From NCBI GenBank assembly GCA_043228905.1, contig JBHGNT010000013.1, positions 7,254,001-7,318,000 of the forward strand: DNA of 64,000 nt, read 5' to 3'. The translations under genes were made by a program, and so were the position numbers. The DNA is from Azolla caroliniana (taxonomy: Eukaryota > Plantae > Polypodiophyta). Below are positions 1,596 to 64,000 of the stretch, piece after piece. Below the pieces are notes generated by a model that saw nothing but the letters and a program-made list of their open reading frames with translations, made no database searches and had not been told where the DNA came from. Positions within the stretch are counted from its first letter, which is position 1, and each line of letters begins with the position of its first letter.

Positions 1596-1624
1596 TTTCT
1601 GCAGCAGTCGCTCTGATACCAGTT

Positions 1625-7172: not shown

Positions 7173-7642
7173 TGTTGTCCGCCAGAATTGTAACCGCCAG
7201 ACATAATGCGTAAAATATGAAAAATGTATTAGAAGCATTAAGGAAAGAGATGTAATGGTTCACACAAGAAGTGTGACCGGCTGAACGCCCTGTGTATATA
7301 AAGGGCAGAAATCCTCTGTACGAGGTAGCATGTAATTTTTAAGCGTGAGGTTTTTCTAATAGAACCTTATCTTCTCTGATTTTCTGTGTGTGTGCAACCC
7401 GTGTTGTCTTGTGTAATCTCTGTGCTATTTGTAAGTGCATCTCTGTAAGCATAGGGTAAGAGTCAGCATAGTAGCGCACTCAAGTTCTCGGTCGTAGCCG
7501 TGAACCTTCACCCATAGATACGCATTATTACATAACTAATGGATTACGGCTCACGCCTCCTGTGGCATCATACCTTGCCACGCAATCACCTTAAGGTCTA
7601 TCTCGAAGGACTAAAGATAGACAGTGTTCCATATCGATAACA
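7173..7642 (+). repeat. G1 5' LTR
   Basis: TGTTGTCC...GATAACA; colinear with 51880-52349 and differing mostly by transitions. Confidence 0.95.
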
Positions 7643-7646
7643 TGTT

Positions 7647-7660
7647 TGGCATGCCTGGTG
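7647..7660 (+). other. G1 primer-binding site, probably tRNA-Arg(UCU)
   Basis: TGGCATGCCTGGTG lies 4 nt after the LTR. It equals TGGCACGCCCGGTG after two CpG transitions, resembling the Arg-type PBS of Tat/Ogre elements (recalled, not searched). Confidence 0.65.
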
Positions 7661-7696
7661 ATCTGTGATTTCTCACAGATGAATAGCAAGGGATGG

Positions 7697-19135: not shown

Positions 19136-19153
19136 TGGTGAACCCGACGTGAA
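19136..19153 (+). other. G2 PBS complementary to tRNA-Trp
   Basis: TGGTGAACCCGACGTGAA is the reverse complement of the plant cytosolic tRNA-Trp 3' end (..TTCACGTCGGGTTCACCA, recalled). Confidence 0.85.
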
Positions 19154-21302
19154 AGAGGCGGCAGAAGAGCAGAAGATGAGGGGGTCGGATCTCGCAGAGG
19201 CCATGGCTTCGGCCGTGGATCGGATTGTAAACGCGCGCGAGAGCACCGGTGCCCTCGACAGAGCTATTGAGGCGGTCGTCGGCACGATCGGCCGGTTCGA
19301 TGGGAAGGATGCCACGAAGTATTTGGCGTCCTACGGTGCAGAGATGCTGATGCGGGACATTCCGGAAGAAAGGCGTCTTGCCGGATTTCCCCGAGTGGCG
19401 ATGCCGAGCATCCATGCGGAGGTGCTCGAGGTGCGGGCGGAGAGCCGTACCTGGGAGGAGTTCGAAGGTCGGCTCCTAGAGAAATACGGGCTGGACGACG
19501 CGCTCCGGCTCTCGAAGCGAAGGTTCATGGAATGGGTGGAGTCCCCGGGGAAGGGAAGAAACGCGTCGGCGCTCCTCCGGGAGTTCGAGGAAAACTTTGC
19601 TCGCCTTTCGGCGCTCGACCGAACCATCCTGGACACAAGCCGGGTCTTGCTGTTTGTCAAGTCGGTCGACGAGCGGGATCGGGAGCAAGTGGGCCTCTTG
19701 CTGGAAACCGAAGACGGGCTCACTACCGACTGGGCGGCTGTCAGGAAGGTCTGTGGCCGTTTCGACAAACGGCGAGAATGGGCGGATAACGGGGCGACCG
19801 GGTCGGGCTCGGTCGCAGCAAGGAAGCTCGAACCAGCGCCACAGGTGCGCAAGGAAGAGACCCGGGAGTGGTTGGAAACCGGTTCGGCTTCAACCGGCGT
19901 AGTCAGAGGCTCAACCGGAGGAGCGGCACTGGAGGAATTGACGAAGGCGATAAAGGACCTCCAAATCGCGCAGGCCCGAAGGGAAGGAGGCGAATCGGCT
20001 CGTGACCGACGGCCGGCGGCAGGAAACAGGTGCATGTGGTGCGATGAAGTCGGCCACATTCGGAAGGACTGCGGCGACTTCGCGGAGGCACTGAGGGACA
20101 GGGTGGTGTACCTGTGGGAAGGACGGGTGCATGCCAGCGACACCCGAAGGGCCCTGAGCCGAAACGACGGAAAGGGTGGTATGAAAAGGTTGATGGAAGA
20201 GGCGGCGGCCCGACACGCGGAAACCGTCCACTACTCGGCGTCGGCCGGCATTCGAGTCGGGGGCGGCGAGGCCCGGAGGGAAAGCAAAGCCGGATTCTGG
20301 CCGACGATGCTGGAAGGCCTTGCCGGTGCAAGGCTTAAAGGGGAGGAATCGGACAGTGCGGAGAAACGGGTACGGGAGATGACCGGGTGGAGCGACCCGG
20401 TCGAGGAAAGGACGGGCTTCGTGGAAACCGCTTGCCGGAACTACGAGGCTCTGGTAGAAGCGAAGCGGGTGGGGAGACCCGGGACGACCGGGCCCTCACA
20501 ACGATACGAGACCCGGTCCGGGCCACGACGGGACGAAGCCGGCGGGGCCGGTACGCAAGATAAACCCCAGAAGGGCGGGTACCGTCTGGGGACGGAGATA
20601 CAAAGGACCACAGACTTACGAAAGGTCCTGGAGGAACGGATCCTCGACAGCAAGGTGGAGCTGTCGTTGCGAGAGGTGCTGGGAATCGCCAAGAAGGAGT
20701 TCCACGACTCCATCGTGGACTTGGTGAAACGGAAGAGGCTGTCGACGGAGACAGAACCGGAAAGACCGGTGGAAGTGCGGACGACGCACCTAGACGACAT
20801 GGCGCTGGGAGACGAGTGGGCAGAAAGCCACTATTCGAGACCACACTGGGCCCGAGCGACCACGGAGACCCCGGTGAAGATCGGCGATGTCCGGGAACCG
20901 GTGATAGCTTTGGTGGACCACGGATCGGAGATCAATTTGATGTCCATGGACTTCTATAAGAAGGGCAAATGGCCGATCAACACCAAGCACGGGTGGAAAA
21001 TAAGGGCAGCAACGCGCGCCACCGAGGAACTGCACGGGGCCTGTCCGAATGTGCGAGTCAAGATTGGCGACGTCGAGATTGACCAGCACTTCTTCGTGCA
21101 GGAGACGTCTTCGCATCCGGTCATTCTGGGAGAGCCGTACATCACAGCGGCGCGAATGGAGACCAAAGTGCTGGACAATGGTTCGGCCTACGCGAGGGTC
21201 AAAAGCCAAGACGGGCGCCATTCGGTCCAGTTTCTGACGGTAAGGCCGAACCACGAACGTAACCGCGATTCCCTCGGTTCCGAAAACCGAGAGGATTTTT
21301 AG
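19149..21302 (+). CDS. G2 ORF1: Gag + CCHC + aspartic protease (true start probably ATG ~19176)
   Basis: 717-aa open frame with RFDGKDATKYL, CMWCDEVGHIRKDC, ALVDHGSEINLM and VILGEPY. Confidence 0.9.
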   Translation: MKEAAEEQKMRGSDLAEAMASAVDRIVNARESTGALDRAIEAVVGTIGRFDGKDATKYLASYGAEMLMRDIPEERRLAGFPRVAMPSIHAEVLEVRAESRTWEEFEGRLLEKYGLDDALRLSKRRFMEWVESPGKGRNASALLREFEENFARLSALDRTILDTSRVLLFVKSVDERDREQVGLLLETEDGLTTDWAAVRKVCGRFDKRREWADNGATGSGSVAARKLEPAPQVRKEETREWLETGSASTGVVRGSTGGAALEELTKAIKDLQIAQARREGGESARDRRPAAGNRCMWCDEVGHIRKDCGDFAEALRDRVVYLWEGRVHASDTRRALSRNDGKGGMKRLMEEAAARHAETVHYSASAGIRVGGGEARRESKAGFWPTMLEGLAGARLKGEESDSAEKRVREMTGWSDPVEERTGFVETACRNYEALVEAKRVGRPGTTGPSQRYETRSGPRRDEAGGAGTQDKPQKGGYRLGTEIQRTTDLRKVLEERILDSKVELSLREVLGIAKKEFHDSIVDLVKRKRLSTETEPERPVEVRTTHLDDMALGDEWAESHYSRPHWARATTETPVKIGDVREPVIALVDHGSEINLMSMDFYKKGKWPINTKHGWKIRAATRATEELHGACPNVRVKIGDVEIDQHFFVQETSSHPVILGEPYITAARMETKVLDNGSAYARVKSQDGRHSVQFLTVRPNHERNRDSLGSENREDF

Positions 21303-24300
21303 AGAGGACTGCCAAGGCGTGGGGCCGCGACAGTCCGGATGCTCCGGGAAAACCCCACATCTGTACGATAAAACCGTGTACAATAGGTAGGAAATTTTGC
21401 TTCTCCGACAGCGGAGCATGTACGATGGTCGGCATCACCGGCCGAGAGAAAACAAAGACGGAGGGGAGACTTCGGGCGTGCGGAGTTCTCGGCCCTGACG
21501 AAGGAATCAACGGAGCCGTGGAGGCAGTCTCCTTCGACGACACCTTGGGAATGCTGGGGGAGGTAGTCGAAGAAGACTTTAACGAAGACCGGACGATACC
21601 GGTATGTTCCGAAGAAATGTACGAAGTCATCGCGGACTTCGGTCGAGGGCTCGAGTCGGAACGGACGGCCCGAGTGAGCACCAAGTACAAGACGGTGGAC
21701 CGGAAGGTGAGGCCAGTTGCGGCGCCCTTACCGGAGGGCAGCGAATCCCCAATCAAAGGGGTTGCATCGGACCCCAGCTTACGAGATCGGGCCTGCATAG
21801 GACACACCTTCACCAACGAGACGCTCTGCGAGCTGAAGATCGGTGGGGGCGGGTTCCTACTGCCGGTGGAGGAAGACCGGTTCCGGAGAATGCTCGGAAG
21901 GCACGGGAAAGCCTTCGCATTCTCGCCGGAGGAAATCGGGTGCGTGGACCCGACGATCGTAGAGCCGATGGTGATATTCACGGTACCTCATGTACCGTGG
22001 AATCTCAAGCCAATTTCGGTTCCGAGAGCTCACATCCCGAAGTTGATGGAGCTGCTGAAACAGAAAGTTGATATGGGCATTCTCGAGCCGTCGAGCGCCC
22101 CGTATTCAAACCGCTGGTTTACCGTACCAAAGAAAAACGGATCATTGCGCTTCATTCAGGACCTGCAGCCGGTCAATAGAGTGACCATTCGGAACGCGGG
22201 GATCGGACCAACCATAGACGAGTTCGCAGAGGCCTTCGCCGGAAGGTCGATTTACTCGGTCGGAGATCTATACTCAGGGTATGACCAGTTCCAGCTAGCC
22301 GTGGAGAGCAGAGACGTTACGACGATGCGAACTCCCCTCGGCCTAGTGCGGATGTGTACACTGCCGCAAGGAGGGACCAACTCGGTGGCCCACATGGTGA
22401 ATGCGATGAACAAGGTGCTGAGGGACTGCATCCCGAACATCACCATGCCGTTTCTAGACGACATCCCGATCAAGGGATGCCCGGTAGAAGAGAAGGACGA
22501 GACGATCGGGCCGGACGGATGCCGGCGATTCGTGACGGCGCACATCGACGACTGCGAGAAGGTGCTGCAAAGACTAGAGGATGCGAGGCTCACCTTCTCG
22601 GGGGAGAAATCAGCCTTTGGGCAGTCGGAGATCATGGTGGTCGGACACTTATGTGGGCCGTATGGCCGGAAACCGTCTCCGGCAAAGGTAGAAGCCATCT
22701 CCGCGATGAAGCCCGACTGCAGCTCGGTCACGGAAGTACGAAGATTCCTGGGGGCATGCGCATTCTACCACATATGGATCCCGCATTACGCCCACATTGC
22801 GGAGCCGCTATACGGATTATTGAGGAAGGGGCGAAGATTCGAATGGCTAGACAAGCACACGGAGTCGGTCCGGAAGCTGAAGGAGGCTCTTTCGGCAGCA
22901 CCGGCGCTCCGAAAGGCCGTCTACAGGAAGGGCACCCCAGTGTACATGACGGTTGACACGAGTCCAACCGGAATCGGGTGGGTCGTCAACCAAGAAGACG
23001 AGGACGGGAATCGGTTTCCGATCCGATTCGGCGCGAAGGTCCTCAGCGAACGGCAGCGAGGATACGCCCAGGTTAAACGCGAACTCTGGGGTATCGTTTC
23101 GGCGGTGAAGGCCGACAAGGACTATCTGATCGGGACGGAGGTAATCATAGAGACGGATTGCATGCCGATTCTCGGCATGGTTTCCGGATGCGCGACGCCG
23201 GACCTGGCAATGCTCAGGTGGATAGCGTACATTAAGTCCCTAGACCCGGTAATACGACACATTTCCGGGAAAGACAACGCCATGGCCGACATGCTTTCAA
23301 GGGCGAGATTCGAGGACGAGGGCGGCATGGTTTCGGAGGACGAAGAGGTCGGCGTGGACTTCTTCGAGACTGCGTATGTAACAACCGGCGGGACAAGCAC
23401 TCCGGCGCTTAACGACTTCGACGCGAGCAAGTACGACGGGGAGTGGCTGCAGATCGGTGGGTTTTTGAAGACAATGACGCCCGATGCGTCATGGACGAAG
23501 GACGAGGCCAACCGGATCCGGAGGAAAGCGTACCGGTTCTTCCTCCGGGATGGCTATCTATGGAAGCACCCGAAGAAGAGGGACGGCGCTCCGCTCCGGG
23601 TGGTGGCGATGAAGGAAGAACAGGGGGAGCTGCTGACGGCCTACCACGACAGCCCTTGGGCTGGACACCGTGGAACATGGGCTACGTTTGAGAAACTGAA
23701 GGGGAAGTATTGGTGGCCGGGGCAGTACCAGGACGTGCATCGGTTCGTGACAACTTGCGAGAGCTGTCAGATGCACTCCATAGTCCGACATCGGGACGAG
23801 CTTCACCCCACGTACCCTCCGACCATCCACTTCAAATGGATGGTAGATCTGGTGACGATGCCAATGGGGGTAGGACAGATGCGGTACCTGGTCCTAGCGC
23901 GGGAGGATCTGACGAACCAGGTGGAAGGCCGGGCCCTTTCGAACAAAACAACCGCGGCCGTATGCCGGTTCCTAATCGAGGACGTGATATGCCGGTACGG
24001 GTGCGTCGGGAAGATCGTGGCTGACCGAGGGGAGTTGGACGCCGAAGAAGCCGCGGAGCTGTTCGACCGGCTGGGAGTCAAGCTCTCGCTCACCACTGCG
24101 TACAATCCGGAGGCGAATGGGAAGGTGGAGCGCGGACACGGGCCGATCGTCAAGGCGTTGGTTCGGGCATGCGGAGGCCAAGTCGGTAACTGGCCGCGGC
24201 TGCTACCTTATGCCTTGTGGGCAGACCGGACCACGCACAGTTCGGTAACAGGGTACATGCCGACGGAGCTCATGTTCGGCCAGAAGCCGATCATGCCGAT

Positions 24301-24781
24301 GGAACGGACGATCTCCTCGTGGGCAACGGTCGACTGGAGGGACGAGATGAGCCGGGAGGAGTTGTTGGCCGCGCGTATACGACAGCTCGAGCGGAGACCG
24401 GAGGACGTGGAACTGGCTGCGGAGAGGCTCCGGGTGGCGAGGGCAAAGGACAAAGCCAGGTTCGACCGAACGCACCGGCTCTGACCGAAGAAGATCGAAG
24501 AAGGTGACTGGGTGCTCGTCTACGACAGCAGCCTTGACAACCAGCACCGAGCTACACGGAAGTTCGCACGAAGGTGGTTTGGGCCTTACGCGGTACGGAG
24601 CGCCAATGACAACGGGACATATCACCTGGCGGAACTCGACGGCACGAGAATGGCGGTACCGGTTGCAGGGAAGCGGATCAAAGCGTTCAAGAAGCGACAC
24701 GACGACGAGCCAGACCCGGCTCTCCTGGTCGGCAGTGACGAACGATCCGAAAACGAGGAAGGACTGACGGGCGAGGAATGA
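21296..24781 (+). CDS. G2 ORF2: RT-RNase H-integrase, probably reached by -1 frameshift; one premature TGA at 24482
   Basis: The frame is open from the ORF1 stop region through ORF 21425-24484 and continues in frame (24512-24781, WFGPY). Motifs DLYSGYDQ, PFLDDI, VDTSPTGIG, HHCC and NPEANGKVER. Confidence 0.9.
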
Positions 24782-25621
24782 AGACGGGCCGGTTTTCTCC
24801 GTCCCAACTTTCTTGGCGCATACCGGAGGATGCGCGGTTAGGTGGGGGCGGATGTCGTGAAGAAAACCGTCCATAGGCGGAATCGGCGCACCAAGGCGTG
24901 GGAACCGGTTCTTCACGCGCGCACGCTCCAAGTTGTACATAGAAGCGAATTAGGGGAAATCGGCAGGAACGGGCCCTAACTCAAGTGGAGACAAAGACCG
25001 CGCGAACAGTCTTTTCGGTCGCGCGCGCGAACTGTACGAGTCGGCGGCGTAACTACGCGGATGCGTGAAAAACGGAGCGGATCCCTGTCCAAAAGGGACA
25101 GGGAATAAAGCTGACAGGACGGCCTGCTCGTCGGCATATATAAGGAGCGGGGAAAGAGCTGTTGCAGGGATCTGGCACGGAGAGGACGAAGTGCTGTCGG
25201 ACCGTTTCTGGACGCTTCTCTCTCTCTGTTCCCTTCCTTCTTGAGCTCCATAGCTTTTCTGTGCAGGGTTCCGAGGAGGCTCGCGCTGTTTCGAGGAACG
25301 CCCGAGTGCTTCCGGCAGCCCGTTTGTGCGTCGAAGCGAACAGGCATCGGCATCTGTTCGCCGGCCTGTTCGGTTGTAACCAACCTGTGCCCCATCGAGG
25401 GTTGTAGTCGTGTTAGCCATTTTTGTTAATACACATATTTAGTCATTCGCATCTGTCTGTGTCGGTGTCTGTTCGCGTTCTCCGTGCTGAAGGGCCGTGT
25501 CCCGTGTATCCCCGGTCCTGCGTAGCCGGTACTCTCTCTTTCTCCTCCCTCGCTTGCTCTTTGGTTCGAGACCCCCGCGGTCCCGCCTCGATTCCACACG
25601 CACTTGCATAATATCTCGACA

Positions 25622-39977: not shown

Positions 39978-40052
39978 CTGTTACACACACACATACACAT
40001 ACATTCATCTTCCGTTGCATTGCAACCACTCTTGCCTTCCCATTTCTTAACA
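39746..40052 (+). repeat. C4 3' LTR
   Basis: TGTTGAG...CTTAACA; matches 10708-10845 and 35231-35397. Confidence 0.9.
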
Positions 40053-40671
40053 ACACCATTATATGTAGAAGACATAAATATGCTAGAAGGGGTACATGAT
40101 GCGGAGCTAGAAGCATACCTTGATGATCACCCGCCGATCGTCCCATTATTTGAAATTGATATTATAGAAACCTGTCATGAGATGGCAAGACTCGAACCCA
40201 TGACCTTATGGTATATGGGTCGAGCTCTTAACCATCTCACCATCTATTGTAATTCATAGAATATTATTTTCATTTATGTTTTATTATAAGAAAGTAATGT
40301 ATATTCTAGATTTCTCTGGAACATTCTAGAAGCTTCAGGATTATTCCTGAGAACACTATAAAAGAAGGCACTAAGCATTATGTTGAACCAAATTGGTTCA
40401 ACACCAGTCTTAAGCCTCTTAGTCGATTTGTACTTATCTTTCATATAATATAAGAGCTGTTGTCATCATCCTATTTCCCTCTCTCTCTCCTCTTCTCACT
40501 TCCTCTCTCTCGGGAATCTTACGCAGTCCCGTCCTCTTAGTACTAATAGTACTACTCTTCTTAGTACTAATTCCATCTCTGTTTTAGTACTATTCCTGAC
40601 AGTTTGAACCAATTTTCTTCCTCTAGCCTACTTGTCACTCTCCCTCATCCTCCTACCCTTTCCCCTATACT

Positions 40672-41829
40672 ATGGCTATTGTTAGCGCCCAAGAATACCA
40701 ATCCGTTTTCTCCGAGCTACAGTGCCTAAAAGAAAAGTTTGTTGCCTTGGAACAAGAAAACCAACGGCTGATAGGGGATCTGCAACAAATCGCTCTAGAA
40801 AAACAACAAACGCAACAACAACATGGGGAGTTAGCGTTACGGGTACAACAACTCGAAGCAGCGTTGCAACAACAAGGATCCAGTCCCCAAGGATTTCATA
40901 AAGAGCCCAAGATTGGACTTCCTGTGAAATTTGATGGAACGCGTTCGCAATTTCGGGGATTCCTTAATCAGGTACGCTTAGTCATCCAGATGCATCCTTC
41001 CCGATATCCCACTGATGCATCTCGAGTCGGCCTAATAGGCACGCTACTTAGCGGCTCAGCCTTGGCATGGTTCGCTCCGCTTCTAGAAAAACAATCGCCC
41101 TTGCTTAATAACTTTGAAGATTTTATTGGTGAGTTTAAAGCCTGCTTTGGAGACACCGACAGCATCAGGACGGCGATCAACAAGATCCGGCGATTGCGTC
41201 AAGGCGATCGTCCAGCCTCTGCCTACGCGGCGGATTTCCGCCTACTTGCTTCAGATATACCCTGGGATGATCAAGCACTAATGGAGCAGTTTCGCTATGG
41301 CTTGCGAAACGATGTCAAAGATCTACTTCTAACTTTCCCCGAAGAACCAAAGTCTCTTACGGAGGCAATCAGTCGAGCAGTTCGATGTGACAACTGCCTT
41401 TTTGAACGGCGTTCAGAACGTCAATTACAGATACCACGCTCTAGGCCAGAGCCCACTTACGCCGCAGTCGCGGCTAAACCGTTTGCACGAGACATACCTC
41501 AAGCAAATACTTCGACACCGATGGAGATCGATACCATGCGTCGACGCGGCCCGTTATCGGAAGAAGAAAAGCAACGACGACGTGCCAATCGATTATGCCT
41601 TTATTGCGGTGGACCAGGACATATCGCCATCAATTGTCCCCATAGGCCAAGAAGACAGGTAAATCAAATTGTCGCCTGTACTAAACCTGAGTCAATTCTT
41701 CCCTTCGGAGTGTCTGATAGTAGTAATAGTACTAATAGAGTGTCAGATAGTATTCATAGTACTAATAGCCCAAGTATCTCAAATAAATTTGAAATCCTTA
41801 GTCAATTAGATGAAGAGTTAAACGATTGA
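40672..41829 (+). CDS. G3 Gag (coiled coil, retrotransposon gag domain, CCHC)
   Basis: 385 aa with PVKFDGTRSQFRGF, LRQG, PMEID and CLYCGGPGHIAINC; PEG10/sushi-like. Confidence 0.95.
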   Translation: MAIVSAQEYQSVFSELQCLKEKFVALEQENQRLIGDLQQIALEKQQTQQQHGELALRVQQLEAALQQQGSSPQGFHKEPKIGLPVKFDGTRSQFRGFLNQVRLVIQMHPSRYPTDASRVGLIGTLLSGSALAWFAPLLEKQSPLLNNFEDFIGEFKACFGDTDSIRTAINKIRRLRQGDRPASAYAADFRLLASDIPWDDQALMEQFRYGLRNDVKDLLLTFPEEPKSLTEAISRAVRCDNCLFERRSERQLQIPRSRPEPTYAAVAAKPFARDIPQANTSTPMEIDTMRRRGPLSEEEKQRRRANRLCLYCGGPGHIAINCPHRPRRQVNQIVACTKPESILPFGVSDSSNSTNRVSDSIHSTNSPSISNKFEILSQLDEELND

Positions 41830-44800
41830 GTCCAGCCAAAATAGGAGCCATTTGGTTGGACAGCAGCCCTAGATCTGTACAGCCCATTAGTGGTTCCATT
41901 CCTTCCAAGCAAGTTAGCAATGTGTTCCTAGCCCAAGTCATTGTTAGTACTAAAAGTACTCCCCCAGTACCCGTCCTAGCACTTTTAGATTCCGGAGCTA
42001 ATTCCTGTTTCATGGATCGAAATTTTGCCCAAGCTTCTCAGATATCCTTAAGAAAACTTCCTTGTCCCGCATCTGTAGTGGTCATTGATGGTTGTCCCAT
42101 TGCTTCCGGGAATATTGTAGAAGAATCAGAACCCATTCAAGTTGTCCTAGGTAGTTTTGTGTGTATAATATCATTTAATATAATTAGTAGTCCAGAGCAT
42201 CCCATTGTCCTAGGATTACCTTGGCTTGAGTTACATAATCCAGCCATAGATTGGAGAACAAGAGAAGTCCGATATCGACCACCCCAAGAATCAACTCGCC
42301 GAGTTTCGACCATTTCACTCCATCAACTACGCGAAGAAGGACCCAAGGAGGCAATGTTCCTATTTTCCATATCAGTACATCCTTCCAGCACTATTAAGAA
42401 GGACTCCTCAGTACAACTTCCGGCAAAATATCATCCTTATCCCGATGTATTTGACAAGGTAAAAGCCGGTACCCTTCCTCATCACCGTCCCTATGACTGT
42501 CCCATCGATTTACAACCAGGAACCGAGCCACCATGGGGACCAATTTACAACCTGTCACCCACCGAGTTAGAAGTCCTTCGAGCCTACATAGAGGAGAACT
42601 TGGCAAGCGGGTTCATCCGTCATTCGAAATCTCCGGCCGGTGCACCCATCTTCTTTGTCAAGAAGAAAGATGGCTCACTTCGTCTTGTCGTTGATTACCG
42701 CGGATTAAATAAAGTCACCATCCGGAATAGGTATGCACTTCCTCTTATATCAAGTCTTTTAGAGCGAGTTAATGGTGCCAAGTTTTTTACTAAAATCGAC
42801 CTACGCGGAGCGTATAATCTCGTGCGGATCCGACCGGGAGATGAGTGGAAGACCGCTTTTCGCACGCGGTATGGGCATTTTGAGTATACTGTTATGCCGT
42901 TTGGCCTAACCAATGCACCCGCAGTCTTCCAACACATGGCAAATGATATATTCAGAGACCTCTTGGATATCTGTTTGATCATTTATCTGGATGATCTGTT
43001 GATTTATTCGAAGACCCAGGAAGAGCACGACTCTCATGTACTATTAGTACTAAAGCGACTCCGCGAGAATGGTCTTTATGCCAAGCTAGAAAAATGTAGC
43101 TTTGACTGCAAGCAAGTGGAATTTCTAGGCTACGTCATCTCCTCAAAGGGCATCGCCATGGATCCAGCTAAGATCCAAACTGTACTAGAGTGGCAAATTC
43201 CACGGTCGGTACGAGATGTACAATGTTTTCTAGGTTTTGCTAACTTCTACCGTAAGTTTATACAGGATTACTCGAAGATTATTTTACCTCTCACACAACT
43301 TATGAAGAAGGGCCAAGCATTTCTTTGGTCCATTGAAGCAGATATGGCTTTTCGGCATCTTAAGAAAGCCTTTACATCAGCACCGATTCTAGCTCATGTG
43401 GATACAAGCAAACCATTCATCATGGAGGCCGACGCATCAGATTTCTCCCTCGGTAGCATCCTTTCTCAACAAGGTGATAAAGAAGAGTTGCATCCGGTGG
43501 CTTTCCATTCGCGCAAATTCGATGTCGCAGAAATCAACTACGAAATACATGACAAGGAGTTATTAGCCATCGTGGATTCATTTGTACAATGGCGGCATTT
43601 CTTAGAGGGCTCTCCACATCAGGTCATTGTCTTCAGCGATCATAAAAATCTTGCTTATTTTCAGAACGCTCGCGTACTAAATCGACGGCAAGCTCGGTGG
43701 GCGCAATTCCTCACGCGTTTCGACTTCAAAATCACATATCGACCGGGGAAGCAGCAAGGAAAAGCAGATGCACTATCACGACGTTCATATCTTGCACCTC
43801 GTCCTGGTGAAGCAACATTTGATAATCAAAAGCAAGTAATCTTGGGACCAACACGATTGCACACGACGCGGATTTTTCACACCCCGATGGATTCACGGAT
43901 TACCGATGACATACGTGCAACCTTGAAGACGGATAGTTTTGCTCAAGACATCCTGGCGCACATTGATACTTCTCGGGCATCCTGTTCTCAGTCTCAACAA
44001 CCAGGTATTGACTACCGACAATTCGAATATCATGATGGTTTGTTATTCTTTAAAAAGCGTGTATATGTCCCCGATTGCTCCTGTCGCCTTCAAATTGTCC
44101 AACATTGTCACGACACCCATACGGCGGGACATTTCGGTAGTACTAAGACGTTGGAGCTAGTGCAGCGATCTTTTTGGTGGCCCCACATGCGCCGTTTTGT
44201 CGACGACTACGTTCGGACCTGTGATGCTTGCTGCCGAGCAAAGATGCCACGACACCATCCATATGGCTTGTTGGAACCTTTACCAATTCCAAGTAAGCCA
44301 TGGCAGTCTATTTGTCTTGATTTTATCACAGATCTGCCGGTCTCGAAAGGGTTCGATGCTATCCTAACCGTCGTCGATCGATATACGAAGATGGCACATT
44401 TTGTGCCATGTACTAAAGCCATCACTAGCGAGGAAACCGCCGCTCTTGTTATGCGTGAGGTTTTTCGGCATCATGGCCTCCCAGACAGTATTATCAGTGA
44501 CCGAGGCCCACAATTTGTCTCCAAATTTTGGCAGCATCTCTTCAAGATGCTCAAGGTCTCCTGCAACCTCTCCTCCGGCTACCATCCTCAGACCGACGGA
44601 CAGGCGGAACGAACAAACCAAACGCTGGAGCAATATCTCCGGTGTTTCCTGAGTTATCAACAGGACGATTGGGCCGAGATTCTCCACTTTGCGGAGTTTG
44701 CGTATAATAATGCTATTCACTCCTCGACTCGGGTCTCCCCATTTTTCGCTTATACCGGTTTCCATCCTCGCTGGTCGGTGATCGACACTCCGGAGCTACC

Positions 44801-45398
44801 TACCAACCCTCGTGCCGAGGATCATTTGGAGAGGCTACGCAAGATCCAGATGGATCTCTCTACTCACCTTCGTCATGCTCAACACACACAGAAGACTTAT
44901 GCGGATCGTCATCGGATTCCCTCCTCTTTTGCCATCGGAGATCGAGTATGGCTCTTACGTCGTCACATCAAGACTACTCGACCGTGCGACAAGTTGGATT
45001 ATCGACGACTCGGTCCTTTCCGTATTACGGGGAAGATTAATGATGTCACCTTCCGCCTTGATCTCCCTCCGCAGCTTCAGATACATCCGGTTTTCCATTG
45101 TTCTCTTCTTGAACCTTATCAAGCAAACACCATTCCCGATCGTGTGACACCACCGCCGCCCCCACTGGAGTTGGACGTCGGCCCGGAGTATGAAGTTGCT
45201 GCCATCCTCGATTCCAAACTTGTTCGCAACAAACTCTATTACTTGGTCGATTGGCTCGGTTATAGTCCGAGCGAACGTACTTGGGAACCCGTCGAGAATG
45301 TTGCCAATGCACAAGATCTTCTTGCTGATTTCCACCGAAAGTATCCGGACAAACCCGGTCCGCAAGTAGTGCTGACTCGTTCCACTCGTCGTCTTTAA
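41817..45398 (+). CDS. G3 Pol (PR-RT-RH-INT-chromodomain), in the -1 frame relative to gag
   Basis: 1190-aa ORF with LLDSGA, YLDD, DASD, HHCC, GQAER and GPF, ending in chromodomain EYEVAAILDS..YLVDWLGY..TWEP. Confidence 0.95.
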   Translation, partial: VKRLSPAKIGAIWLDSSPRSVQPISGSIPSKQVSNVFLAQVIVSTKSTPPVPVLALLDSGANSCFMDRNFAQASQISLRKLPCPASVVVIDGCPIASGNIVEESEPIQVVLGSFVCIISFNIISSPEHPIVLGLPWLELHNPAIDWRTREVRYRPPQESTRRVSTISLHQLREEGPKEAMFLFSISVHPSSTIKKDSSVQLPAKYHPYPDVFDKVKAGTLPHHRPYDCPIDLQPGTEPPWGPIYNLSPTELEVLRAYIEENLASGFIRHSKSPAGAPIFFVKKKDGSLRLVVDYRGLNKVTIRNRYALPLISSLLERVNGAKFFTKIDLRGAYNLVRIRPGDEWKTAFRTRYGHFEYTVMPFGLTNAPAVFQHMANDIFRDLLDICLIIYLDDLLIYSKTQEEHDSHVLLVLKRLRENGLYAKLEKCSFDCKQVEFLGYVISSKGIAMDPAKIQTVLEWQIPRSVRDVQCFLGFANFYRKFIQDYSKIILPLTQLMKKGQAFLWSIEADMAFRHLKKAFTSAPILAHVDTSKPFIMEADASDFSLGSILSQQGDKEELHPVAFHSRKFDVAEINYEIHDKELLAIVDSFVQWRHFLEGSPHQVIVFSDHKNLAYFQNARVLNRRQARWAQFLTRFDFKITYRPGKQQGKADALSRRSYLAPRPGEATFDNQKQVILGPTRLHTTRIFHTPMDSRITDDIRATLKTDSFAQDILAHIDTSRASCSQSQQPGIDYRQFEYHDGLLFFKKRVYVPDCSCRLQIVQHCHDTHTAGHFGSTKTLELVQRSFWWPHMRRFVDDYVRTCDACCRAKMPRHHPYGLLEPLPIPSKPWQSICLDFITDLPVSKGFDAILTVVDRYTKMAHFVPCTKAITSEETAALVMREVFRHHGLPDSIISDRGPQFVSKFWQHLFKMLKVSCNLSSGYHPQTDGQAERTNQTLEQYLRCFLSYQQDDWAEILHFAEFAYNNAIHSSTRVSPFFAYTGFHPRWSVIDTPELPTNPRAEDHLERLRKIQMDLSTHLRHAQHTQKTYADRHRIPSSFAIGDRVWLLRRHIKTTRPCDKLDYRRLGPFRITGKINDVTFRLDLPPQLQIHPVFHCSLLEPYQANTIPDRVTPPPPPLELDVGPEYEVAAILDSKLVRNKLYYLVDWLGYSPSERTWEPVENVANAQDLLADFHRKYPDKPGPQVVLTRSTRRL

Positions 45399-45843
45399 GG
45401 GGGAGATAGTGTCATGAGATGGCAAGACTCGAACCCATGACCTTATGGTATATGGGTCGAGCTCTTAACCATCTCACCATCTATTGTAATTCATAGAATA
45501 TTATTTTCATTTATGTTTTATTATAAGAAAGTAATGTATATTCCAGATTTCTCTGGAACATTCTAGAAGCTTCAGGATTATTCCTGAGAACACTATAAAA
45601 GAAGGCACTAAGCATTATGTTGAACCAAATTGGTTCAACACCAGTCTTAAGCCTCTTAGTCGATTTGTACTTATCTTTCATATAATATAAGAGCTGCTGT
45701 CATCATCCTATTTCCCTCTCTCTCTCCTCTTCTCACTTCCTCTCTCTCGGGAATCTTACGCAGTCCCGTCCTCTTAGTACTAATAGTACTACTCTTCTTA
45801 GTACTAATTCCATCTCTGTTTTAGTACTATTCCTGACAAAACC

Positions 45844-48211
45844 GTTGCAAATTACGCGCCCAGTAATACGCTTTAGGAAGAGGCGTACGAGCCGGATCGA
45901 GAATCATTACTAGAGCTAAGCAGGGCACAAGCAGCATTTGACCGGGAAATGGAAATCTCACGGCGAGTCTCCGCCTCAGCATTAGAAGACGTCAACGTCG
46001 AAACGACAACGGATCCATGAATACTCTCGATTGCAAAGGATTTACCCCCAAGTCAGAAGGAAGCAATGATAGCGCTACTCAAGGAATATAAAGATGTGTT
46101 CGCTTGGTCCCACGAAGTTATGAAGGGGTTGGACCCAAAGTTTTACCAGCATAAGATCAACTTAGCTACCGATGCAAAACCCGTACAACAACGTCGGTAT
46201 CGAATGAATCCGATTTACGCGGCTCGCATAAAAGAGGAAATTGACAAACTTCTCAAGGCAAGGTTTATTCGACCAGTTAAGCAAGCTACGTGGTTAAGCC
46301 CAATAGTCATAGTACCAAAGAAAAATGGCAAAATCCGTGTTTGCGTAGACTATCGGAAATTGAACGCTGTAACAATTACAGATGCATTCCCCTTACCTTT
46401 CACCAACAGCGTACTAGATGCAGTCATGGGGCATGACATGTACAGTTTTCTGGACGGCTTCATCGGATATAATCAAGTACGCATGCATCCTGACGACCAA
46501 GAGAAGACGGCGTTTGTCACCGACTGGGGGGTTTATGTCACGGTAGTCATGATGTTTGGGTTAAAGACGGCGCCTGCCACATTCCAGCGGACAATTATGG
46601 AATTTTTTGGGGAATACATACCCGCCTTTATGCAAGTCTTTCTGGACGATTTCGTGGTGTATGGGACAATAGCCGAACATCTGAGTCATTTATGGCTTTG
46701 TTTGGAGCGCTGCCATACTTCACGCTTAAGCCTGAATCCGACTAAATGTGCATTCGGCATCACCAGTGGAGCCCTCCTCTGCCACATCGTAAGCAAGGAG
46801 TGGATAGCAGTGGACCCGAATAAAATTTCCGTGATCATTCAAGCGAAAACGCCGATGACTGCCGTTTCCTGGGACAAATACGTTGGCATAGTCATATGTT
46901 ACGGTATTTGGCAGATTTTGCTACGCCACTACACGCCGCCGTACACCGCACACCTTTCAAATGGACGGCAATCGAAGAAAAAGCGTACAACGCACTTAAG
47001 ATAATGTTCACGCAAGCACTGGTCGTACAACCACGAGATTGGGTGAAACCGTTCCATGTCTTTTTGGATGCTTCAGATATAGCAATAGGCAGCGCGTTGA
47101 TGCAGCTCACATAGCTGAATTGGTACAGACCAGTCTATTACGCCAGTCGAAAGCTATCAACGGCCGAACGTAACTACTCCACAACAGAACGAGAGGCGTT
47201 GGGAATGATATACGACATCAATAAATTCCGCCATTATCTGTTGGGTCGAAAATTTACGTTTCACATAGATCATGCGGCGTTGCTCTACCTTGTGGAGAAA
47301 CATGCGCTGACATGAAAACTGGCTAGATGGATGGTATTGCTCCAAGAATTCGACTTCATAATTCAGCATCACCCAGGTACGCAACACGCCGTAGTAGATT
47401 TCTTGAGTAGGGTGGATAACGGGGAAACTACAAGGAAAGATGACGATGACTTTCCCGATGTGGACGTTCTGCGGGTCGTGATGATAGCGTCACGGGAAGA
47501 GAAAAATTTTCCGGATCGATGGCTAATGGAAATGACGTACTTTCTTACTACAAGAATGCCACCGCCACAAGTAAGGACAGGCGAAAAGAAGCGATTGGTT
47601 GTCCATAGCCGTAACTTTTGCCTGGTCGAAGGAATACTGTATCACAAGGGCAACGATGGAATCTGGCGACACGGGATACGTCAAGATGAGAAGGAAGTTG
47701 TTTTGCGCGAAGCTCACTGTGGTACAGAAGGGGGGCACTATGCGGGAGATGTTACGGCCAGAAGTCAGCCCACAAAGGGCACGAGAATGCCACATCAACC
47801 CGTTCTTATGCTAGATCCATTCCAGAAGTGGGGCCTTGATTTTGTGGGACCCTTTACACTGGCAGTAGCGCGAACAGGTAATAGATATATTCTGGTAGCC
47901 ACAGACTATTGCTCTAAGTGGGTGGAAGCAAAGGCGTTACAGGACAACACAACGGCATCTACAGCAAAATTTCTGTATGAATACATCCGGTGCCGTTTTG
48001 GTTGCCCCATCGAGCTTATCAATGATCAGGGAGTCACTTTCTGAATTCAATCATCCACGAGCTCATGCACCGTTACGTCGTCGTCCATAAGAAAAGCACG
48101 TCATACTATCCATAGGCGAATGGACTAGCAAAGTCCATGAACAAAATCTTGCAGACAATACCGCAGAAGATGCACTTCTCATAAATCCCTACCCCCTGAA
48201 AGATTATATAC

Positions 48212-48253
<42 letters not shown>

Positions 48254-48903: not shown

Positions 48904-49254
48904 TTAATAAGTTGGGGGCCACTTGTAAAATACTGTAAATAGTAATCATGTATTTAACCGTTAAAAAAAAAAAAAAAGAAGGTAGTGATGATTATTAAAA
49001 GGGACTTTGTGCATGCACAAACTTCTAGGGCAAGAACACACGGCACTACGATGTCACACAGACCGATGCACCCTAGGCCACAAAAAGAGGAAAGCATAAG
49101 GTTTTTTGCGCATTACAGACAACCAACTTCAGTCTCCAGCCCTCCTTGCTCTCTTCGCTCTTCTCGCTCACCTCGCTCTCCACCATACCACAGAGCTCGC
49201 GCTCACCATAATTTGCAATCTTCGACTAGCCGTCATGAGCCCCATCCACCCACG

Positions 49255-51793
49255 ATGCCGATCACTATCTTTGCAGCTCTACGCATATGGCTCCTGGAAA
49301 AGGGGTTTGAGGGCTATATCAGGGTCGTCGAAGCTCTACCACACCTTGAGGCTCTTGACATAGCCAAGAAGTTGAATGTGTACACAGTGACGAACGCCAC
49401 CATTCGGAAGAAACTCGGTTTATCAGTGATTAGGGAAAAGCACTTCGAGATTCCTCCTGCAAAAACGCTCGGGAAATACTTTGGGGAATATTCAACGTCG
49501 GCTAAGGCATACAGAACAAAGGACATTCCAAATCCATTTTTTCGGGAAGTCGCCAAGTTCCTACTGGAAGTCGGGTGCGTACACGTGAATGCATATGGGA
49601 TGCCTAAACAAAAAGCAAGTGTCATCATCGAAACCTTTGAAGGACGTGTCGTAGATTGGGGTGTAATCACAGGGCCAACACTTAGGGAAGGACTATACAC
49701 GTATCAAGACGGGAAGAAACTCTGGCCGATCATTCAACAACACCTTATTGTACTATTTCCTCCTCGCAGACTTCCCGCCCCCCACACCAAGCGAGCCGAC
49801 GCCTCTGCCACGATCCGCGAAACGACAGCTAGTAGAGTTAGCTACCACCGAATGGGAGGAGGAAAAACAACCTTCTCCTACCACCCAGTGGACGACACAG
49901 ACGGAACCACCAGCCAAAGACACTAAGACACAACCCTCCACGACAACAGAGGAACAAGAGCCCACCGATGACAGTCCCAGGCCCAAACGGCGACGATTAG
50001 ACCAGAAGGACAGTCGCAGATTGCTAAAAGATACGGTCGTCACCACCAAAACGTCCACTCCCACAAAGCCCACTACGACACTGGAGATATTTCACGAACT
50101 TTGACCCATCATTATGGCACAATCTTAGTGGGGCAAAGGAGTGCTTATGGTAGAAAGTGAAGTCCTGAAATATCCGGACATTCCGGACACGGCACATGAG
50201 TTCAATGCGTTATTGCAGTATGGCACCACATATGAGCTCATGGAATTTTTGGCGACTCAGCAAATCAAGGTGTCACAGCGAATGGCTGAAGAACACGCGG
50301 AGCAGCATATGGTGGAGCGCGCGCTAACGCGAACAACGGAAAGTGAGGATGAGGGGCCTCTAGCCAAGATAGGCAGGCAGCAGAACACGGGGATTCAGCG
50401 TATGGGCATTGAACTACCCCCATTGAATACGGCCCTTGTTGAGGCACATCAGGAATTGGCTAGAGTTAGTATGGGCGCCAAGGATACGGCTATCAAGAAT
50501 AAAGATGTTTGGAAAACAGTCAAGCTGACTCAAGCCAAATTATAGAAGACCCAAGAGCGCATTGTGGAGTTAGAACACAACGTCACTATGGCACCGCAAA
50601 ACCCCGAACCAACATCCGGTGAAGACGCATCGATAACCCTACAAGAGGAGATTGCAGCGCAGAAGGCCATCGCCGCTAAAGCAAAAAGGGCTACGCAGTT
50701 TGCGGAGTCCGAGATTGATCGCCTCCGCGCCGAACTCCGCCAATCCTCCGACAGAGAAACAGACATACAGGCCAAAGGCCGAAGGGCAATAAAGGCACTA
50801 GAAGATAAACTCAAAGCGAAGACAATAGCACACACCAACACGAAAGAAGAAAACAACAAGCTACGGGAGGAAGCCCAAAAGTCGGAAGCGGTGATCACAG
50901 GACTCCAAGAGTTATTGGAAAAGAAGAAAGTGTGGTACGACGAGCAGCTCGTACGAGAACGGGAGGTGACGCATCAGGTAGAAGTCCGCCTGAACAATGA
51001 AATGGGTCGGTTAGAGGAACTATACTTGAAAGAATCCCAAATATGGGCAAAGATGAAAAGCCATTATGAGGAAGCGGCTACGGTTAATAAGCAAGAAATC
51101 GAAAACCTCAAAAAAACCCTGGAAGAAGTGCAAAACTGCTCCTAAGCGATAACAGATAATGTACACATACTTCTTCAAACAAATCGGGAGAGGTTTACGA
51201 CGCAATTAAAAACAGTGCTAGATAAAGGCTGGATGGTGTGGGCAACACAAGCGGTGGAGTTGCATACCTATCGGGCAGACTAGGAGAGCCGAAGGAAAGA
51301 AGGCCAAGGTTTCTACAAACTCAATGAGGAAGGCATTGTGGCAGTATGTGAGGACCTAGCACAGGATTATCGCACGCTAGCGAACCAACACTTTGAGGAA
51401 CTCACACAACTATTAGACGACTTCGGGGAATGTCAAGAAGATATTTTTCATCGACTAATGGAGATCAAGAGAGAACAACTTACGGAGCCAATTTTGGTAC
51501 CCGATACCGATTCCACCGAGCACAGGGAGCCTCAACCTAATTCATTGGAGATGACAACTACGCCATGCAACATTGCGGACGATACGAACAGGATAGAGCC
51601 TCAGCCAACCACTTGCCCACAGACGGAAGAGCCAGCCCCAGCAGAAAGGAATGAGCCAACAAAGCCGGGTCTGACCACGCAGGGAGAAGTTGACAACATA
51701 GAAACCCCCCCGACGGCCGAGCAGGGACAAGACGCTCAACAAAGCAACGAAGCACCTACGGACATTACATCGTCTCCGAACCAGAACGTATGA
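49255..51793 (+). pseudogene. G1 additional sense ORF downstream of pol (unknown function, long coiled coil), disrupted
   Basis: Consecutive plus-strand pieces 48985-49926, 49748-50104, 50141-50545, 50564-51145 and 51338-51793; E/K/Q-rich heptad-like region. Confidence 0.7.
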
Positions 51794-51879
51794 GCGGAGT
51801 CGAACATCCTAGACATCTTGGAGGATGAATAGAGGGATGGATCCGACGTGCCATGGCACTATCCCACAGGCGTGCCAGG

Positions 51880-52349
51880 TGTTGTCCGCCAGAATTGTAA
51901 CCGCCGGACATAATGCGTAAAATATGAAAAATGTATTAGAAGCGTTAAGGAAAGAGATGTAACGGTTCACGCGAGAAGCATGACTGGCTGAACGGCCTGT
52001 GTACATAAAGGGCAAAAATCCTCTGTAAGAGGTAGCGTATAATTTTTGAGCATGAGGTTTTTTTAATAGGATCTTATCTTCTCTGATTTTCTATGTTTGT
52101 GCAACCCGTGCTGTCTTGTGTAATCTTTGTGCTATTCATAAGTGCGTCTCTGTAAGCATAGGGTAAGAGTCAGCATAGTAGCACACTCAAGTTCTCGGTC
52201 ATAGTTGTGAACCTTCACCCATAGATACGCATTATTACGTAACTAACGGATTACGACTCATGCCTCGTGTGGCATCATACCTTGCCATGAAATCACCTTG
52301 AGGTCTATCTCGAAGGACTGAACATAGATAGTGTTCCATATCGGTAACA
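51880..52349 (+). repeat. G1 3' LTR
   Basis: Colinear with 7173-7642 and followed by TSD TCAAG. Confidence 0.95.
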
Positions 52350-53048
52350 TCAAGCATGAAGGCCGAATATCGAGGGGTGACTATTGCTACGTGCGAAGTC
52401 ATCTGGCTGAAATGGTTATTACGAGATCTACATGTGGAGGTGTCTGATCCAACGATGATCTATTGCGACATCCTCAACAACATCCACCTTGCAAAGAACC
52501 CTGTGTTCCACGCCAGGACCAAGCACATTGAGGTGCATTATCATTTCGTCCGTGAGCATGTCGTTTCTGGTGAAGTCGAACTAGTGTATGTTCTGACAGG
52601 TCGGCAGATTGCCGACATCTTCACCAAGCCCCTTGGTCTCGACAAGTTACGGCATTTCTCGGGTGATCTAGGTTTGCATCACCTCGACATGTTGATCTTG
52701 AGGGGGAGACAGGAACAGGAACAAGAGCATGTAAGGAGCGGTAGTGATTGCTATGTTGAAACGGATGAAGAATTCGATTTCAGGCCAATTGAAGAAGCCG
52801 AAGAAGAAGGAAACAAGGGTCGTAATCGCAAGGAAGAGCAGAAGACAGCCGAACAAAGTACAACAAAGAAGGGCGTAAAGGCCAAGACCAAAACGTGGTC
52901 TGATATTGTCAAGGGCCTAAAGATAGAAGACGAATTGGAGATAGCCAATTCGAGCGAAAGTGGAATTAAATCGGAAGTGTCCGATTTAATCGAAATGCTC
53001 GATTTGGACATTACGAATCGACTAAGGGCCAAGTGGAGGAAAGGGTAG
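52350..53048 (+). pseudogene. C2 RNase H remainder and C-terminal tail
   Basis: [31 protein letters not shown]. Confidence 0.9.
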
Positions 53049-61936: not shown

Positions 61937-64000
61937 TGTAGGGAAGCCTCTTTGAATCCTGCTTGGCATGGGGATGTATCTCTATGGCCTTGGCATAAGT
62001 GTTCCAGTATCAATCGATTTGTCCTTTGAAGGGGCAGCACGAGGATTAGGGTTTAGGTCAACCAGAGAGGGAGAGAGTCCGAATGAGAGACAAAGGGAGA
62101 GAGAGAGAGAGATGCACACTATCTTCGGTACAAAGAGTGTACCACTTTTTTGGTTTTTAGATATTATGTATATACAAGTTAAAAATGTGCTTGTTCACAG
62201 TCATGCACTAATAAAAGGCACGATGGCCCTTTATTCCCAACAACCTCCCACCTAAAGGCAATGTGCCGTGAGAAAAAAGAGAGGAAAGAAAGTCAGCTAA
62301 GTCCAAGTATGTACAAAGCTGAACTACATACATCTATCCAACCCCCATCATTTATCGGCAATGAGCAAATCGCTCAGCTGGAAGACCCTTCGTGAGAAGA
62401 TCTGCAGGATTATTATTTGTATGTACTTTGACAAGCTCAATGTTCTTGCTGTCAAGTACATCTCTGATGAAGTGATACTTCACTTGTATGTGCTTCGTCT
62501 TTGCATGAAAGACGAGATTCCGAGCTAGCATGATAGAACTCTGGCTGTCACAATGAAGAATAGGTAACTCTGTAATGCCAAGATCTCTCACTAGATATGA
62601 AAGCCATAAAGCCTCCTTGCAGGCCTCAGTGGCAGCTACTAACCACTCCATCTGTAGTAGACAATGCAACACACTTTTGTAGTCTGGAGATCCAAGAGAC
62701 TGCTCCTCTTGTGAAAGTAAACACATACCCAGAAGTAGACTTTCTGCAGTCCGCGTGACCAGCATAGTCCGCATCCGTAAAACCAACGATAGATGCCTTT
62801 TGCTTTCCAAAGCAAATGCACAAGTCCTTTGTGCCTTTGAGGTATCTCATAATGCCTTTCACCGCTTCCCAATGCTTTTTGCCGGGATTTGCCATGTACC
62901 TACTAACCACTCCCTCTGTAGTAGACAATGCAACACACTTTTGTAGTCTGGAGATCCAAGAGACTGCTCCTCCTGTGAAAGTAAACACATACCCAGAAGT
63001 AGACTTTCTTCAGTCCGCGTGACCAGCATAGTTCGCATCCGTAAAACCAACGATAGATGCCTTTTGCTTTCCAAAGCAAATGCACAAGTCCTTTGTGCCT
63101 TTGAGGTATCTCATAATGCCTTTCACCGCTTCCCAATGTTTTTTGCCGGGATTTGCCATGTACCTACTAACCACTCCCTCTGTAGTAGACAATGCAACAC
63201 ACTTTTGTAGTCTGGAGATCCAAGAGACTGCTCCTCCTGTGAAAGTAAACACATACCCAGAAGTAGACTTTCTTCAGTCCGCGTGACCAGCATAGTTCGC
63301 ATCCGTAAAACCAACGATAGATGCCTTTTGCTTTCCAAAGCAAATGCACAAGTCCTTTGTGCCTTTGAGGTATCTCATAATGCCTTTCACCGCTTCCCAA
63401 TGTTTTTTGCCGGGATTTGCCATGTACCTACTAACCACTCCCTCTGTAGTAGACAATGCAACACACTTTTGTAGTTTGGAGATCCAAGAGACTGCTCCTC
63501 CTGTGAAAGTAAACACATACCCAGAAGTAGACTTTCTTCAGTCCGCGTGACCAGCATAGTTCGCATCCGTAAAACCAACGATAGATGCCTTTTGCTTTCC
63601 AAAGCAAATGCACTAGTCCTTTGTGCCTTTGAGGTATCTCATAATGCCTTTCACCGCTTCCCAATGCTTTTTGCCGGGATTTTCCATGTACCTACTAACC
63701 ACTCCCATTGCAAAAGCAATATCAGGGTGTGTAGCAACTATCGCATATATCAAACTGCCAATGGCTGAAGCATATGGAACCTTAGCCATTTCAGCCTTCT
63801 CATCATCAGATGTAGGGCTGTCTTCTGCACTGAGTTTCAAATATGGAGGCAATGGAACCCCATTTGTTCCCCCCCCCCCCCCCCCCTCCATATTGAAATG
63901 CTGCAAAACCTTAGAGATATACTCTTGCTGAGATAGAAAGAGTACCCCTTTCGACCGGTTTCGGAGTATTCTCATGCCAAGGATGTGATTTGCATCACCA
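61937..64000 (-). mobile_element. Tnt1/Tork-like Copia C7, 3' part (RT end, RNase H, PPT, 3' LTR ~61937-62242), inside the CDK intron
   Basis: VPYASAIGSLIY, HWEAVKGIMRYL, KTKHIQVKYHFIRD; PPT AGGTGGGAGG before TGTTGGGAA. The left LTR boundary is uncertain. Confidence 0.82.
62636..63705 (-). repeat. Four near-identical 264-bp tandem units within C7 pol
   Basis: The ORF track repeats with period 264 (62755, 63019, 63283, 63547). Confidence 0.95.

Follow-up and report, generated by a model that had tools for sequence, protein, structure and literature searches.

Self-comparison of the window, i.e., the whole 64-kb stretch of DNA analyzed here, showed it to be a stack of nested long terminal repeat (LTR) elements. 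One of these, designated G1, carries the defining features of a Ty3/gypsy LTR element, namely a pair of LTRs, TG...CA ends, and a target-site duplication (Table 1). The two LTRs are 91.1% identical over 470 bp, with 36 of their 42 differences being transitions, and a tRNA-complementary primer binding site (PBS) lies downstream of the 5′ LTR, as in canonical elements. The G1 copy is degenerate, and its gag-pol region is split by nested insertions. Profile searches identified an RVT_1 domain at position 46021 and an rve domain at position 47316, the latter scoring below the curated cut-off; reverse transcriptase (RT), RNase H, and integrase domains were recognized in the proteins P0002 to P0005, relatives that are 70% identical to G1. 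For the extra open reading frame (ORF) region that follows pol, a scan of three frames gave no Pfam match, and a protein search limited to longer proteins found no homologue of its tail. By eye, this region is partly charged and coiled-coil-like, and it ends in a conserved acidic ILDIL tail whose stop codon abuts the cassette described below. Two further observations concern the pol region. A (TA)n microsatellite is present at positions 48205 to 48248 within the integrase region, and positions 9738 to 10632 hold an inverted duplication of approximately 310 nt of the pol region, with arms that are 91% complementary and joined to nested insertions; related pieces are located at positions 40052 to 40172 and 45839 to 46029.

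Table 1. Features of element G1, given as positions of the 64-kb window
Feature	Position	Strand	Description
5′ LTR	7173..7642	+	470 bp, TG...CA; TCAAG target-site duplication at 7168-7172
PBS	7647..7660	+	14 nt; 4-nt spacer from LTR; complements 3′ end of plant tRNA-Arg(UCU) by the fragments in PMC8482286, supplement 3
RT ORF fragment	46021..47004	+	RVT_1-type; non-chromovirus Ty3/gypsy
Extra ORF region, after pol	48958..51832	+	~2.9 kb; several broken frames in window copy; ends NILDILEDE-stop
Purine-rich run	51820..51841	+	mostly acidic codons and stop of extra ORF
Cassette part 1	51837..51846	+	sense copy of tRNA nt 49-58: T stem 5′ strand and T loop to A58; substitutions in window copy
Insert	51847..51860	.	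14 nt between tRNA positions 58 and 59; contains palindrome GTGCCATGGCAC
Cassette part 2	51861..51877	+	sense copy of tRNA nt 59-76, CCA included; lacks one base where T stem joins acceptor strand
Spacer	51878..51879	+	2 nt, from CCA to the TG of the LTR
3′ LTR	51880..52349	+	470 bp, TG...CA; TCAAG target-site duplication at 52350-52354

The proteins closest to the G1 RT are approximately 70% identical to it; among the named matches from non-seed plants, those of Riccia reach 48 to 55% and those of Adiantum mostly 41 to 58%, which suggests that a non-seed plant is the probable host. According to the available text of Neumann et al. 2019 (PMC6317226), G1 resembles the plant non-chromovirus Ty3/gypsy elements (OTA superclade, Phygy, and Selgy) in its related RT, its tRNA-Arg PBS, its extra ORF after pol, and its 4-nt spacer between LTR and PBS. 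Unlike these groups, however, its RT falls into a well-supported group together with relatives from liverworts and metagenomes; seed-plant sequences of the Athila-like and Tat-like types and those of Pinus, Lathyrus, and locus L056 lie outside this group in quick trees that used SH-aLRT support only, a midpoint root, and no REXdb references. G1 is not a chromovirus, as its RT lies away from that of the chromovirus in the window and no chromodomain is listed for P0002 to P0006. The domains PF13456/PF00075, a trait of OTA/Tat elements, are absent from the closest full polyproteins (P0002 and P0005) and present in the Vitis sequences, the pol region of G1 itself having been scanned only in part for an additional archaeal-type RNase H. 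Phygy and Selgy elements are short and have no extra ORF, which differs from the region of approximately 2.9 kb in G1.

G1 has no polypurine tract (PPT) beside its 3′ LTR. Within the last 15 nt before this LTR, the longest purine run comprises 3 nt, whereas the same test at 13 control junctions, which include the near-identical pair L033/L037, gave purine runs of 8 to 11 nt in 10 cases and G-rich runs of 4 to 5 nt in the other 3. Over the 150 nt upstream of the G1 3′ LTR, the longest pure purine run is 7 nt, and a PPT is also absent from the relative L003 described below. A sequence-only reading of this DNA had already pointed to the missing tract, and its coordinates for the adjoining motif, palindrome, and purine-rich run all hold. 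That reading located the purine-rich run correctly, approximately 38 nt from the LTR, and missed its protein-coding nature. Specifically, positions 51803 to 51832 encode NILDILEDE followed by a stop codon, in frame with the last extra ORF, which in the window copy contains an earlier in-frame stop. All six variant places listed for this interval are third codon positions, with the stop being kept, and the L003 ORF ends with NILDILDEDKGAG and a stop, the same peptide as the G1 tail. Judged from codons and variants, the run at positions 51820 to 51841 is the coding tail and not a displaced PPT. Other purine runs, each of 11 nt, were noted inside LTRs: one at positions 51947 to 51957 of G1, approximately 70 nt inside the LTR, which is followed by TGTAA and has a matching site in the 5′ LTR, and one at position 505 of L003. 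These could be relics of an older PPT/LTR edge or could be due to chance.

The place of the PPT is taken by TCCCACAGGCGTGCCA at positions 51862 to 51877, followed by GG and the LTR, with the palindrome GTGCCATGGCAC upstream at positions 51848 to 51859. In agreement with the earlier claim, the reverse complement of TCCCACAGGCGTGCCA matches 10 of the first 11 bases of the G1 PBS; a match of this quality has a chance of approximately 7e-6 per offset, and this is the sole such minus-strand site in the 64 kb. In five control elements (a sixth was left out), the same test gave matches of 4 to 6 of 11 bases. The assignment of the motif to tRNA-Arg(UCU) was likewise borne out by documented plant tRNA 3′ ends, as supplement 3 of PMC8482286 contains, for tRNA-Arg(UCU), the fragments TTCGAGTCCCACCGGGCGTGCCA from Arabidopsis and, in the maize columns, one that ends in GTGGGTTCGAGTCCCACCAGGCGTG, with the tRNA-Arg(UCG) fragments there ending CCCACTGTGGTCGCCA. 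By these fragments, the G1 PBS is a 14-nt complement of the tRNA-Arg(UCU) end; its position 7652 is T in the window copy and C in 72 to 84% of contig depth, giving TGGCACGCCTGGTG.

The likeness to the tRNA had been recognized for positions 51862 to 51877; its upstream extent to position 51837, covering the T arm, had been missed. The whole cassette, positions 51837 to 51877, is a sense copy of tRNA-Arg(UCU) nt 49 to 76 including CCA, by the fragments in PMC8482286 and in standard tRNA numbering; read on the minus strand, its second part amounts to a 17-nt PBS. Compared with these plant fragments, the cassette is of the maize type in G1 and of the Arabidopsis type in L003; both are angiosperm tRNAs, from which the host tRNA may differ. 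Because the cassette includes CCA as well as T-arm bases that the G1 PBS lacks, it likely stems from a mature tRNA rather than from an inverted PBS. ARAGORN found no tRNA gene in the 64-kb window or in 80 loci compared with G1, and Rfam gave no match in positions 51600 to 52400. Its location outside the LTR and its restriction to nt 49 to 76 distinguish the cassette from a tRNA gene or a Helenus-type Pol III cassette. The identity of this word as T arm plus acceptor strand was checked on phage loci, and in 78 of 90 it falls within an ARAGORN tRNA, a result that is not informative on the host. At the other end of G1, directly 3′ of the PBS, positions 7661 to 7680 form an 8-bp hairpin with family variants largely in or next to its loop, mirroring the hairpin that follows the 17-nt site.

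Conservation was assessed with contigs from 4 of the 15 listed runs that were placed on G1, representing three organism labels and three studies. Summed contig depth, which is not copy number, peaked on the cassette with the same shape in all four runs. In X1, which may be the window's own source, it reached 160,794 at positions 51864 to 51872 versus 479 at positions 51783 to 51791 and 959 at positions 51927 to 51935; in X9, it was 5,401 on the cassette versus 209 and 716 in the flanking bins. None of the 40 variant rows listed (out of 194) falls into positions 51845 to 51860 or 51862 to 51890, and positions 51861 and 51841 are G in 81 to 88% and 91 to 98% of the depth, respectively, which improves the match to the tRNA. 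Contig loose ends before position 51844 terminate in GTGGGTT, and the same cassette block is joined to various flanks and LTR interiors. The presence of several LTR interiors after the block indicates that many subfamilies share the cassette. We regard it as real that, throughout the lineage of this gypsy element, a tRNA-Arg cassette has taken the place of the PPT. The sequence-only reading had named an unconserved motif or the lack of a tRNA match as grounds for abandoning its proposal; what was found is conservation across the family and a match to the plant tRNA-Arg(UCU) fragments of PMC8482286. As a separate matter, two candidates were discarded because their bases vary within the family: a 9-nt repeat common to both untranslated regions, and a pairing close to where gag begins.

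A metagenome scan covering 6 of 64 parts, of which the best 80 of 573 matches (79 loci) were considered, yielded one close contig that reaches both element ends, L003, which was identified by BLAST and has 74% RT identity to G1; none of the other close loci is long enough to extend to an element end, and base-by-base readings of the cassette are confined to G1 and L003. Coverage of L003, which is a single contig, is low, its LTR is collapsed, and a target-site duplication is lacking, so that it could be chimeric. Its 3′ portion consists of the ORF tail, GTGGGA TTCGA, a 13-nt insert (GTAC-AAG-GTAC), GTCCCAC GGGCGTG CTA, 2 nt, and the LTR. The insert occupies the same place as in G1, with one stem pair changed on both sides, and the same tRNA base is missing; CCA is replaced by CTA, and the T-stem part has one extra base. 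The distance from the CCA to the LTR, 2 nt in G1, is probably 2 nt here as well, given an LTR start at position 458 and an uncertainty of 2 nt in the LTR edge. By contrast with its tRNA-Arg(UCU)-type cassette, the PBS of L003, TGGCGACCAC at position 925, is of the tRNA-Arg(UCG) type by the fragments in PMC8482286, so that the two ends name different tRNAs. The covariation of motif and PBS type that the earlier reading had suggested as a check thus fails in the only relative with both ends readable. Since the cassette was kept despite a PBS for another tRNA, it is independent of its own PBS in this one relative. More distant two-LTR loci (approximately 44 to 52% RT identity) form a neighboring group with PBSs resembling the UCG type. 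As most of them have a purine tract at the LTR (that of L040 being weak), the cassette looks derived, with relationships taken from midpoint-rooted quick trees. An exact search for the core of the cassette gave no match in the 80 loci, and the viral contigs contained one distant element only, with no close relative and no cassette.

Pairing energies were calculated as RNA-RNA values, which served as a proxy. The 3′ fragment of Arabidopsis tRNA-Arg(UCU) taken from PMC8482286 paired with the minus sense of the cassette at −33.5 kcal/mol in G1 and −33.6 kcal/mol in L003, values that were reached by none of 200 shuffles in either case. In the window, the G1 cassette ranked first of 5330 tiles, with the next-best tile at −31.9 kcal/mol, and its margin over the GC-rich background is small. 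The tRNA paired more strongly with the minus sense of the G1 cassette than with the PBS of G1 itself (−28.8 kcal/mol), and the energy calculation gave no pairing of this fragment with the plus sense of the cassette or with the L003 PBS. Neither strand of the cassette folds better than shuffles (z scores of −0.94 to +0.67).

We consider it somewhat better than even, at roughly 55%, that a second host tRNA-Arg anneals to the minus-sense cassette and primes the plus strand. By the standard geometry of reverse transcription, the left LTR boundary would correspond to the point at which the plus-strand primer has its 3′ end, which here would fall on CCA. Over approximately 17 bp, interrupted by one bulged base, tRNA nt 59 to 76 are predicted to pair with the minus-sense cassette; the insert would form a looped-out hairpin at the point where m1A58 is unable to pair, with further pairs to T-arm bases on its far side. 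Minus-strand DNA freed by RNase H would serve as the template, an antisense transcript from the 3′ LTR being the less simple possibility, and integrase would trim the 2 extra bases before the LTR. According to the available text of PMC13191261, m1A58 prevents Watson-Crick pairing and delimits the 18-nt PBS of retroviruses; the break of the cassette between A58 and G59, exactly where this base cannot pair, therefore counts in favor of a tRNA primer. There are also objections. A tRNA end on DNA is an RNase H substrate, the base missing from both cassettes weakens the pairing, and L003 has CTA instead of CCA. HIV-1 RT reportedly extends such hybrids poorly. That the bulge protects the tRNA from RNase H is speculation. 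From the earlier proposal, the second tRNA site on the minus strand in the place of the PPT stands as the best-supported reading, conserved and matching a tRNA; the priming itself we infer. The fuller picture would be that of an abundant plant Ty3/gypsy clade without PPT for which host tRNAs act as primers of both DNA strands, the second being a fixed tRNA-Arg(UCU) on a split site with a conserved bulge and hairpin protective against RNase H, and the first primer being free to switch between tRNA-Arg isoacceptors; for this, the chances appear evenly balanced. We are considerably more confident that one of the two leading readings, a tRNA in trans or a tRNA-like self-primer, holds, and under either of them the route would differ from PPT priming.

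The main competitor of the host tRNA, and the form in which the tRNA mimic suggested by the sequence-only reading survives, is such a self-encoded primer, to which we assign a clearly smaller but appreciable likelihood. The tRNA-like segment of the genomic RNA would survive RNase H, be cut after CCA, and act as a non-purine PPT, and one enzyme specificity for the tRNA-Arg end would then serve both strands. Such a primer would retain the canonical route, in which it is cut from the genome RNA, with the same position and the same end point, and the missing tRNA base would cost nothing. The changes on both sides of the insert stem between G1 and L003 fit this idea, as does the extra base in L003, which lengthens the self-pairing GTGGGA/TCCCAC; furthermore, a five-base motif of the T loop would be left intact by an insert placed after A58. 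On the other hand, plus-strand RNA of the cassette region is no more stable than shuffles (z scores of −0.38 and −0.85) and adopts differing structures in G1 and L003, and RNase H would have to spare a mixed-base segment without a known reason. A weak argument from two sites points in the same direction, as A at position 51837 and C at position 51843 of G1 would be wobble pairs versus the tRNA, with the former breaking the self-paired stem.

Pairing of the cassette with the element's own PBS, which would circularize the RNA, control the access of tRNA, or protect the PBS against tRNA fragments while the plus strand is primed in another way, is improbable. The ends of G1 pair at −24.1 kcal/mol, and 5′-3′ contacts are known in Ty3 from the available text of PMC5371799, but the ends of L003 reach only −9.2 kcal/mol, and the mismatch between its PBS and cassette tRNA types weakens the circularization that the sequence-only reading had offered. 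In addition, tRNA bases 49 to 62 of the cassette have no partner in the 14-nt PBS, the GATGAATAG repeat next to the PBS is not conserved, and both the LTR boundary and the absent PPT are left unexplained. We regard as slightly less probable still that the cassette is a captured tRNA relic, a packaging or dimer signal without a priming role, or a simple local hairpin. A 12-nt palindrome drives dimerization of the Ty3 initiation complex, although there on the tRNA (PMC5371799, available text); the palindrome of G1 is not kept in L003, however, and the TGGCAC/GTGCCA hairpin, put forward earlier as the simpler explanation, is of ordinary stability (z score of −0.38 versus shuffles) and absent from L003. 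Moreover, conservation of the tRNA bases far exceeds that of the flanking sequence, and CCA is at the primer position. Finally, a PPT displaced to positions 51820 to 51841, with the extra 38 nt being trimmed or bypassed, is very unlikely, since the run, although purine-rich and preceded in relatives by a T run like U-tract plus PPT, encodes the conserved ILDIL(E/D)(D/E) tail with its third-position variants and kept stop, since contig loose ends before position 51844 reveal a subfamily with T-rich sequence abutting the cassette, and since priming at the run would place the cassette in both LTRs, where it is absent.

Canonical LTR elements such as Ty3 and the retroviruses prime with a tRNA at the PBS and an RNase H-resistant PPT (PMC5371799, PMC12789967), and the available texts of PMC12789967 and PMC10886601 treat plus-strand priming from the PPT as a general rule for LTR retrotransposons and retroviruses. 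G1 is like these elements in its TG...CA LTRs, 5-bp target-site duplication, PBS, and a conserved element abutting the 3′ LTR, but this last element is a copy of a tRNA 3′ end and not a purine tract. Split tRNA sites contacting acceptor stem and T arm are known from the bipartite PBS of Ty3 and the T-arm contacts of retroviruses (PMC5371799, PMC13191261); these are situated on plus RNA and serve minus-strand initiation, whereas in G1 it is the minus sense that is complementary, at the site where the plus strand begins. Helenus TRIMs (Kojima 2024, PMC10886601) are also LTR elements with tRNA-derived sequence, but their tRNA-like part lies inside the LTR, the PPT is kept, and no role in priming was found by the author. 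Self-priming Tf1/Sushi and Tcn1 elements (PMC10085805, PMC6317226) likewise use an unusual primer, which is element-encoded as in the main alternative discussed above; they replace the minus-strand tRNA primer and keep the PPT, whereas G1 replaces the plus-strand primer. As far as these sources extend, split tRNA sites, self-priming, and tRNA-bearing LTRs are thus already known, and all of them keep the PPT or concern the minus strand. Exact-word matching in the open full-text literature, with subscription papers mostly outside, found no report of a tRNA site replacing the PPT. The available text of PMC6317226 reports no PPT replacement for plant non-chromovirus Ty3/gypsy elements, the motifs are absent from the supplementary text available for PMC6317226 (17 kb) and PMC5389709, and the ATHILAfinder preprint, in its accessible part, applies the label "no PPT" solely to seeds that were missed.

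That a high-copy lineage in nature lacks a PPT means that the rule of PPT priming can be broken. The cassette is a short, defined substrate on which to study how an RT comes to accept an RNA primer on DNA and why such a primer escapes RNase H, and annotation tools that depend on PPT seeds would overlook such elements. Reportedly, Cer7 of Caenorhabditis elegans encodes its own tRNA primer.

Several other elements were observed. A contig from the viral collection (L001, positions 1 to 8465) represents a gypsy-like LTR retrotransposon that has terminal repeats as well as a PPT. Within the window, positions 18363 to 25621 hold a young gypsy element with LTRs that are 99.6% identical, a GC content of approximately 58%, and DUF4100 in gag; its PBS differs, it has a G-rich tract, and its RT is on a very long branch. 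Positions 62636 to 63706 comprise a tandem array of approximately four 264-bp units that are 93 to 98% identical. The young chromovirus at positions 40173 to 45838 has LTRs that are 99.5% identical and an ordinary PPT, and no TGG-type PBS follows its 5′ LTR, as expected of a self-priming Tcn1-like element.
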